A stretch of 8,688 nt of DNA from the NCBI RefSeq assembly GCF_003334335.1, contig NZ_QOWQ01000068.1; one strand, given 5' to 3'. The position numbers and the translations under genes are program-made. The notes under the pieces were generated by a model, which saw only the letters and a list, made by a program, of their open reading frames with translations, had not been told where the DNA came from and ran no database searches. Shown in pieces: positions 321 through 512 of this stretch. Source of the DNA: Escherichia coli. Lineage in GTDB: Bacteria; Pseudomonadota; Gammaproteobacteria; Enterobacterales; Enterobacteriaceae. Position 1 is the first letter of the stretch. Each line of letters begins with the position of its first letter.

Positions 321-512
321 CTAATTATTGGACGAAATTGGTTTTTGCTTTGGTTTAGTTAGCCTAGCAATCAAGCCAGAGGCAATAATGATGATCCAAG
401 CAATTTGATGCAATGCTACTCCAATATAAGAACCTTTATAGATAATAAAGGCATAGATCGCTAGAAACGAAATAAATATCCATAACGAAAGTTGATAAAT
501 TTTGGCGCGCAT
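321..512 (-). CDS. Small hydrophobic protein with two predicted transmembrane helices and a basic C-terminus, unknown function
   Basis: ORF track 321..527 begins at a TTG; the first ATG is at 512 (63 aa from MRAKIYQLSLW...). Two hydrophobic stretches (LSLWIFISFLAIYAFIIY and IGVALHQIAWIIIIASGLIARL) are followed by TKPKQKPISSNN. No clear Shine-Dalgarno; lies in the AT-rich island, divergent from the lipoprotein operon. Confidence 0.35.
   Translation of the reverse strand: MRAKIYQLSLWIFISFLAIYAFIIYKGSYIGVALHQIAWIIIIASGLIARLTKPKQKPISSNN

Follow-up and report, generated by a model that had tools for sequence, protein, structure and literature searches.

The window analysed here is a stretch of 8,688 nucleotides (nt) of Escherichia coli DNA (contig NZ_QOWQ01000068.1, assembly GCF_003334335.1), and these 8.7 kb are part of a DLP12-like lambdoid prophage. 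On its minus strand, at positions 321–512, lies an open reading frame (ORF) for 63 amino acids (aa), MRAKIYQLSLWIFISFLAIYAFIIYKGSYIGVALHQIAWIIIIASGLIARLTKPKQKPISSNN. A prediction made earlier from the letters of the window alone, referred to here as the original prediction, had singled out this ORF from its first ATG, and both the ORF list and the translation bear it out.

321–512, minus strand: coding sequence of a 63-aa two-helix membrane protein, ATG at 510–512 and TAA at 321–323 (ORF list, translation, homologs and hairpin model)

An alternative in-frame TTG at 527 would give a product of 68 aa. The relatives described below all begin at a M-R/Q-A-K position that aligns with the ATG at 512, and since the start position is conserved in this way we place the start at the ATG and not at the upstream TTG. 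Kyte-Doolittle windows identify hydrophobic stretches at residues ≈5–25 and 29–52, which are separated by the sequence YKGSY and followed by a Lys/Pro basic C-terminal tail with a net charge of +4. An AlphaFold2 model of the 63-aa protein has helices at residues 3–26 and 30–52 with a mean predicted local distance difference test (pLDDT) score of 72. The two hydrophobic helices and the basic tail of the original prediction are thus recovered by hydropathy, charge and structural modeling, and the product is very probably a two-helix membrane hairpin. The predicted topology is N-in/C-in, with the MRAK N-terminus and the basic C-terminal tail in the cytoplasm and a periplasmic turn of 3–5 residues. 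According to the ORF list there is no open frame on the plus strand beneath 321–512.

The phage PhiR30_1 (PV340558) has an annotated coding sequence (CDS) exactly at 321–512, labeled as a 192-nt minus-strand ‘hypothetical protein’; the Prokaryotic Genome Annotation Pipeline (PGAP) leaves the interval uncalled in the RefSeq genomes inspected. The exact 63-aa protein is present on at least 1000 contigs and is named ‘hypothetical’ or ‘uncharacterized’ in every public source.

The length of the ORF was dropped as evidence of coding (P = 0.09–0.24), as first-order Markov simulations of the 488-bp island in which it lies produced an ATG-initiated ORF of at least 63 codons in 9.5% of the cases and a 68-codon stop-to-stop frame in 24%. 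The ratio of nonsynonymous to synonymous substitution rates (dN/dS) within E. coli was ruled out as well, because the copies are too alike (2 differing sites within the ORF among six aligned copies). The evidence that the gene is real comes from the conservation of its relatives and not from the window sequence itself.

With phmmer, 1.84 billion cluster representatives were searched exhaustively, which returned three proteins of 60–75 aa with 37–50% identity. Profile searches added members from Klebsiella, Citrobacter braakii and metagenomes, and scans of viral and genomic sequences with DNA patterns added the viral contigs L034 and L035 and two Pseudocitrobacter species. Distinct relatives of matching length number more than 15 (33–52% identity), all free of stops and frameshifts. 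The members are 57–63 aa long when counted from the shared M-R/Q-A-K start, and they align without gaps over 57–60 positions. For the protein P0007 an internal Met (60 aa) was preferred to the 75-aa gene call, as the alignment starts at this Met and the longer call includes a TATACT hexamer. Residues M1, K4, Y29, G31, V32, and L34 are invariant in the family, while Y20, H/N35, Q36, S/T45-G46 and the basic tail are largely kept and the hydrophobic filler is variable.

Between the window gene and its Klebsiella counterpart, 24, 14, and 35 sites differ in codon positions 1, 2, and 3, respectively, over 59 codons, which corresponds to a dN/dS of 0.19 with synonymous sites near saturation. The same position bias (third > first > second) was seen for six further pairs with dN/dS of 0.065–0.195, a range that covers the seven pairs with defined dS. 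In the syntenic pair from Pseudocitrobacter the CDS is 87% identical, compared with 69% for the upstream 150 nt, and the downstream DNA is unalignable. Collinear homologs are found in at least four genera and in five unalignable DNA contexts.

It had been left open in the original prediction that the ORF might be spurious, and conservation of the frame and dN/dS had been proposed as checks. A spurious ORF would here be a frame open by chance on the T-rich strand of the island, and its hydrophobicity would be due to T at second codon positions. The non-significant length, the weak Shine-Dalgarno sequence, the missing PGAP call in RefSeq and E. coli copies too alike for a test would all agree with a chance frame. 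Against it stand collinear homologs whose third codon positions approach saturation while the protein is kept, a CDS that is better conserved than its flanks in the syntenic pair, and the lack of an open frame on the opposite strand. Because the frame is under purifying selection as a protein we reject the spurious reading, which has hardly any credibility left, and consider 321–512 (minus strand) to be, with near certainty, a genuine protein-coding gene.

Carriers of the gene other than E. coli are Klebsiella pneumoniae, a Klebsiella sp., Citrobacter braakii, the two Pseudocitrobacter species, two IMG/VR viral contigs and several metagenomic assemblies. As judged from these sequences the family is unnamed, uncatalogued and restricted to Enterobacteriaceae; the genome scan used a 4-sequence alignment and its single pattern found Pseudocitrobacter only, and the taxonomic range is therefore to be read as a minimum. 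A tblastn search of phages and plasmids gave PhiR30_1 as the sole match among the phages and none among the plasmids. All lambdoid contexts have the gene between the replication genes (of O/P or O/DnaC/DnaB types) and the nin/Q genes, where it is the sole opposite-strand gene between the two modules. The contexts and the neighbors discussed here are as follows.

Antisense placement between replication and nin/Q genes: window, PhiR30_1, L007–L012 (six Klebsiella-type contigs), L034, L036, L037, L038, L041–L043 (including a Citrobacter braakii genome), L045, and L046
HolE (DNA polymerase III theta)-like gene, head-to-head partner: L007 5672–5929, L036 743–991, L038 5673–5930, L045 4681–4935, and L046 3204–3461
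Chromosomal site 1: Pseudocitrobacter, in the order pspF, PrpA-like phosphatase gene, small gene, sapA
Chromosomal site 2: L044, near patD, ydcR, and ortT homologs
Chromosomal site 3: L013, adjoining a mlaE-like gene

The divergent neighbor is the HolE-like gene in most contexts; in L041–L043 it is a gene for a 100-aa protein of unknown function, and E. coli has the lipoprotein operon at this place. The Klebsiella-type and related prophages have the small gene head-to-head with the HolE-like gene at a distance of 65–71 nt; in L034 the HolE-like gene is reduced to a 52-aa remnant and the small gene is intact. The gap from the small gene to the next downstream gene is 48–126 nt in the relatives. 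L035 has the gene beside int/xis, again opposed to its neighbors. As the divergent neighbor varies, the small gene is an autonomous module rather than a part of the lipoprotein operon. Chromosomal site 1 is shared by the two Pseudocitrobacter species. A gene for a GhoT/OrtT-family toxin (L044 2823–2996) is located ≈2 kb from P0035, the family member at chromosomal site 2, in a region syntenic with the ydc locus of E. coli, which is probably a coincidence.

The surroundings of the gene in the window were taken from the RefSeq annotation of an identical copy and are given in window coordinates; the first 2 kb of the window are 100% identical to many RefSeq chromosomes.

Ending at ≈161, minus strand: truncated recT/bet
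161–283, plus strand: ren C-terminal fragment, stop at 281–283
769–1329, plus strand: YajG-family lipoprotein
1326–1778, plus strand: second lipoprotein, with a glycine-zipper domain
1871–1972: 33-aa ORF, ‘hypothetical protein’ in PGAP, whose stop overlaps the ybcN/ninB start
Following the 33-aa ORF: ybcN/ninB, ninE, ybcO, rusA, ylcG, quuD, an antisense porin pseudogene, essD, and rrrD

The PGAP annotation is blank over 284–768. The 63-aa gene lies in this interval, within the AT-rich island between ren and ninB and ≈5 kb from essD/rrrD. The GC content is 0.34 at 301–750 and ≈0.51 in the flanks (by stretch, 0.32–0.39 at 151–900, 0.51 at 1–300 and 0.50–0.53 at 1800–3300). The ORF start and the lipoprotein start at 769 (plus strand) are head-to-head with 256 bp between them, so the arrangement in an AT-rich island claimed at the outset was also found here. 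Repeats in this divergent region are limited to short two-copy matches that probably arose by chance.

Only one out of 50,697 phage records (PhiR30_1) holds window positions 150–2000, and the remaining phage-record matches cover only the flanks (recT/bet at 1–167 and ninB at 1785–2000). The island thus separates genes that are neighbors in related phages, and its base composition is unlike that of the surrounding genes. Both features are expected for a moron, an independent transcription unit added to a phage genome (PMC3594210). The 488-bp island segment (281–768) was found in 280 of 5426 complete E. coli genomes (≈5%), in 279 of them with at least 99% identity, and all 280 also carry at least 80% of window positions 1–2000. 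A T-run at 305–311, outside the ORF, has seven T in the window and six in E. coli 042 and many other genomes, and this length difference accounts for a large group of 487-bp matches with 99.6% identity. E. coli 042 and PhiR30_1 have intact O, P, and ren genes upstream of the same island. In the window the recT remnant directly abuts the ren fragment; its prophage is defective, with the immunity region, pR and the O/P replication genes gone.

The family could not be connected to any known one. In PHROGs the window protein only matched phrog_17225 at E = 0.096 and seven relatives had no match. NCBIfam and Pfam gave no meaningful match (weak hits to SdpI, DUF998, and DUF6232 at E ≥ 0.002 are hydrophobic noise), a profile search of the PDB returned only noise from the PsbI transmembrane helix (E ≥ 0.1), and no Rfam family was found in the window. 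Searches of the literature library found no paper on the peptide, the accessions of its neighbors or phage PhiR30_1, and nothing relevant on antisense membrane genes of the nin region. The gene thereby belongs to an uncatalogued family of a known sort, the moron-encoded small inner-membrane proteins.

Two known arrangements resemble that of the small gene. The lysogenic-conversion gene bor of phage lambda is oriented antisense within the lytic operon, and like nmpC of DLP12 it is set against that operon in the same way as the small gene, an orientation that allows expression while the prophage is repressed. These genes encode an outer-membrane lipoprotein and a porin, respectively, whereas the product here is a 63-aa predicted inner-membrane hairpin. 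The other example is gp15 of phage HK97, a small inner-membrane moron protein that is expressed from the prophage and blocks genome entry of other phages, and that has chromosomal YebO homologs in Enterobacteriaceae (PMC3594210). The two proteins are similar in length (62 aa for gp15) and in their inner-membrane location, which is predicted for the protein studied here. Both genes are single-gene insertions with their own signals (candidate signals in the present case) inside a lambdoid-type lytic operon, and homologs of both occur on Enterobacteriaceae chromosomes outside prophages. However, gp15 has one N-terminal transmembrane (TM) helix and a soluble charged C-terminal helix, compared with two TM helices and a short basic tail in this family, and it is co-oriented with the tail operon, whereas the small gene is antisense in the early-right operon. 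Exclusion has been demonstrated for gp15 and is proposed for this family by analogy only.

Taken together, we tentatively favor the explanation that the gene encodes a moron-type inner-membrane hairpin that is expressed in the lysogen and may act in superinfection exclusion. The parts of this explanation differ in strength. From its sequence and contexts, the gene is rather likely to be an autonomous accessory gene that is expressed in the lysogen. An exclusion or defence function specifically would follow from analogy and is doubtful, though we regard it as the most likely single role, acting at the step of DNA entry as does the unrelated gp15. The mobile unit would consist of ≈30 nt with promoter and leader, the ORF and usually a hairpin right after the stop. 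Its place is the delayed-early (pR) operon of lambdoid prophages, where it is antisense and has the replication genes on one side and ninB/Q on the other. Genes that oppose a lytic operon, as lambda bor does and as the porin gene of the window does, are usually expressed in the lysogen, and by this logic the small gene might have a sigma-70 promoter of its own that is active as long as the prophage stays repressed. During lytic growth, convergent antiterminated transcription from pR would damp it. As the conserved Tyr, Gly, His/Asn, Gln, and Ser/Thr-Gly residues lie in the helices or at their ends, the protein may act by helix-helix contacts in the inner membrane, where it would bind a membrane component of the host or of an incoming phage.

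A more specific version would make the gene a single-gene prophage system, in which the hairpin protects the lysogen by an entry block or by infection-triggered killing and the antisense placement serves as a switch. The switch would be on in the repressed prophage and shut by convergent antiterminated transcription at the onset of lytic growth, allowing the phage to avoid self-inhibition. We consider this version somewhat unlikely. The following features of the window bear on the expression of the gene.

519–521, minus strand: weak Shine-Dalgarno-like GGA, 6 nt upstream of the ATG (read from the sequence)
543–548, minus strand: candidate -10 hexamer TATGAT, ending 31 nt upstream of the ATG (putative promoter with a short leader)
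578–606, minus strand: promoter-like TTGAAG-17-CATAAT (consensus scan)
631–659, minus strand: promoter-like TTGACA-17-CATATT (consensus scan)
281–323: AT-rich imperfect palindrome, possible weak bidirectional terminator, spanning the stops of ren (281–283) and of the small gene (321–323)

The palindrome forms the left edge of the island. Its folding energy is -10.7 kcal/mol (z = -2.1) and it has no U-tract; the T6/T7 polymorphism falls in its loop. When the downstream segments were folded, 7 of 10 relatives had a stable stem-loop within ≈30 nt of the stop, six with z of -2.5 to -5.1 and that of L007 with z = -1.4, and three of the seven have U-rich tails. A strict terminator scan confirmed only the one in L007, and no stable stem-loop follows the stop in L040, L013, and L042.

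Several observations weigh against the favored explanation. The signals for expression are modest. In 7 of 9 members a -10-like hexamer (at least 5 of 6 matches) ends 30–34 nt before the ATG, in upstream DNA that does not otherwise align, but the search interval was chosen after inspecting the sequences, which makes the result suggestive only, as is the leader of ≈20–25 nt that this position implies. The hexamer of the window itself has P = 0.15, and the four promoter-like sites found in the consensus scan do not exceed the 3.1 expected from shuffles. Neither the terminator scan nor folding found a canonical intrinsic terminator for the window copy. The Shine-Dalgarno sequence is weak throughout the family, with GAGA at the same distance in the phage relatives, GGA in the window and none in the chromosomal copies. 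The original prediction was right in calling the translation signals weak, GGA at 519–521 being the only one; as a trait of the whole family this is no sign of a non-gene. The contexts also raise doubts. The prophage in the window has lost the immunity and replication region including pR, and the gene is unchanged; with the region from recT to the end of ren lost, there would be no pR transcription to oppose it. Copies are found at three unrelated chromosomal sites, so the role may not be phage-specific, and these chromosomal copies are maintained under selection. Finally, no match was found among the PADLOC-DB 2.0 defence models at E ≤ 1, and hhalign of gp15 against the family profile A3 gave a probability of 0.5%, i.e., no homology.

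Other roles have to be weighed against exclusion. The protein could be a membrane-damaging toxin, either an abortive-infection effector, a type I/V toxin (GhoT/OrtT- or Hok-like) or a holin-like protein, that is kept near-silent by its poor translation signals. With its size, two TM helices and charged C-terminal tail it has the general build of class II holins and GhoT/OrtT; the weak Shine-Dalgarno sequence of the whole family would fit tight translational control, and such effectors are common in prophages. It resembles the 57-aa two-helix GhoT/OrtT toxins (PF10753) in length, hydrophobic helices and enterobacterial distribution, and class II holins and pinholins in the two TM helices, the predicted N-in/C-in topology and the highly basic C-terminus. 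However, GhoT/OrtT homology is lacking: PF10753 was not matched by the window protein or eight members even at E ≤ 10, hhalign against the PF10753 protein of L044 gave a probability of 0.5%, and that protein has no basic C-terminal tail. Neither Pfam toxin or holin families nor holin PHROGs nor PADLOC models were matched. The gene has no antitoxin-like or otherwise conserved partner, as its neighbors vary, and it lies outside the lysis cassette with no endolysin beside it. These phages have holins of their own in their lysis cassettes (EssD in the window, Phage_holin_3_7 and Phage_holin_8 in the relatives). The flanking gaps (65–71 nt upstream and 48–126 nt downstream) are largely filled by promoter/leader and hairpin and leave no room for a separate antitoxin RNA gene in the relatives, although a cis-antisense RNA antitoxin may overlap the gene. 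There is no Rfam match, the putative leader is short compared with the long structured leaders of type I toxins, and the gene is stably kept under strong purifying selection in a defective prophage and at chromosomal sites. We therefore consider a toxin unlikely. The same holds for a small regulatory protein comparable to MgrB, AcrZ, MgtS or SafA, which would modulate a membrane protein of the host. It would be a lysogenic-conversion factor tuning a transporter or a sensor kinase, unrelated to phage defence. The conserved Y20, Y29, G31, H/N35, Q36, and S/T45-G46 suit specific helix contacts better than bulk membrane damage, and the fixed-site chromosomal copies in two Pseudocitrobacter species suggest a use to the cell without any phage. 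Yet the neighboring genes are not conserved and so indicate no candidate partner, and no sequence relation to any named small regulator was found.

Two further readings would assign the gene a subordinate role, and both seem very improbable. According to one, the protein takes part in the function of the lipoprotein operon under a common divergent control region, for instance as an immunity partner or regulator of the lipoproteins or as their anchor in the inner membrane. In E. coli the ORF is indeed always accompanied by the lipoprotein genes (280 of 280 genomes), with the same 256-bp region between them. But relatives outside E. coli never have these lipoproteins nearby, and in E. coli HMDUC-17 (L006 2175–3337) an IS3 element disrupts the first lipoprotein gene, leaving the small gene 660 bp away unchanged. 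This reading is already largely refuted by the contexts. The small membrane protein at a moron boundary that was originally proposed is thus supported, and it has no functional tie to the lipoproteins, as relatives occur without those genes and beside other neighbors. The other reading is a transcriptional device, a convergent promoter/terminator cassette that limits pR read-through into nin/Q in the lysogen, the peptide being secondary. It would explain why the gene is always antisense in the lytic operon, at the position of the tR2 terminator in lambda, and the hairpin of L034, which carries its A-run toward the gene, would terminate the opposite strand. However, it is the amino-acid sequence that is under purifying selection, and neither the chromosomal copies outside phage operons nor a prophage without pR fit such a device.

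Small membrane proteins are routinely missed, and this gene is left unannotated by the NCBI pipeline in the RefSeq E. coli genomes inspected, despite its presence in ≈5% of complete E. coli genomes. The uncertain ORF has become a defined and testable family, with purifying selection, a mobile unit of its own and an antisense placement in lambdoid prophages of at least three genera. If the exclusion or defence role is true, it would add a very small and easily transferable determinant to the prophage repertoire and would cleanly illustrate control by gene orientation. Should the protein instead modulate a host membrane protein, lysogenic conversion by small proteins would gain a new case. The specialist is unlikely to be surprised by such a gene; its antisense placement is strikingly constant.

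The neighbors of the small gene in the window showed further features. The genes of the lipoprotein pair (769–1778) have a 4-nt ATGA overlap. The first encodes 186 aa with the lipobox LTGC, matches only PHROG 12521 (unknown function) with no Pfam domain, and is named either ‘YajG family lipoprotein’ or, implausibly, ‘UDP-N-acetylglucosamine acyltransferase’ depending on the record. The second encodes 150 aa with a glycine-zipper 2TM domain and matches PHROG 13877. This two-gene operon is probably a separate lysogenic-conversion cargo. Upstream of it, within the divergent region, a 46-aa plus-strand ORF (MMEYVGENDLCQICGNEYH...) was seen at 624–764, and the E. coli polymorphism G/A at 640 falls inside it. 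The OmpC/NmpC-like porin gene at 4031–5173, antisense between quuD and essD, is a second gene that opposes the lytic operon. PGAP calls it a pseudogene with an internal stop and PhiR30_1 has two ‘OmpD’ CDSs in its place; in the window it is open as a 380-aa ORF. More AT-rich troughs were observed at 5100–5550 (GC 0.27, the gap between porin gene and essD) and 7500–7950 (GC 0.32), which may be other inserted cargo or regulatory regions.

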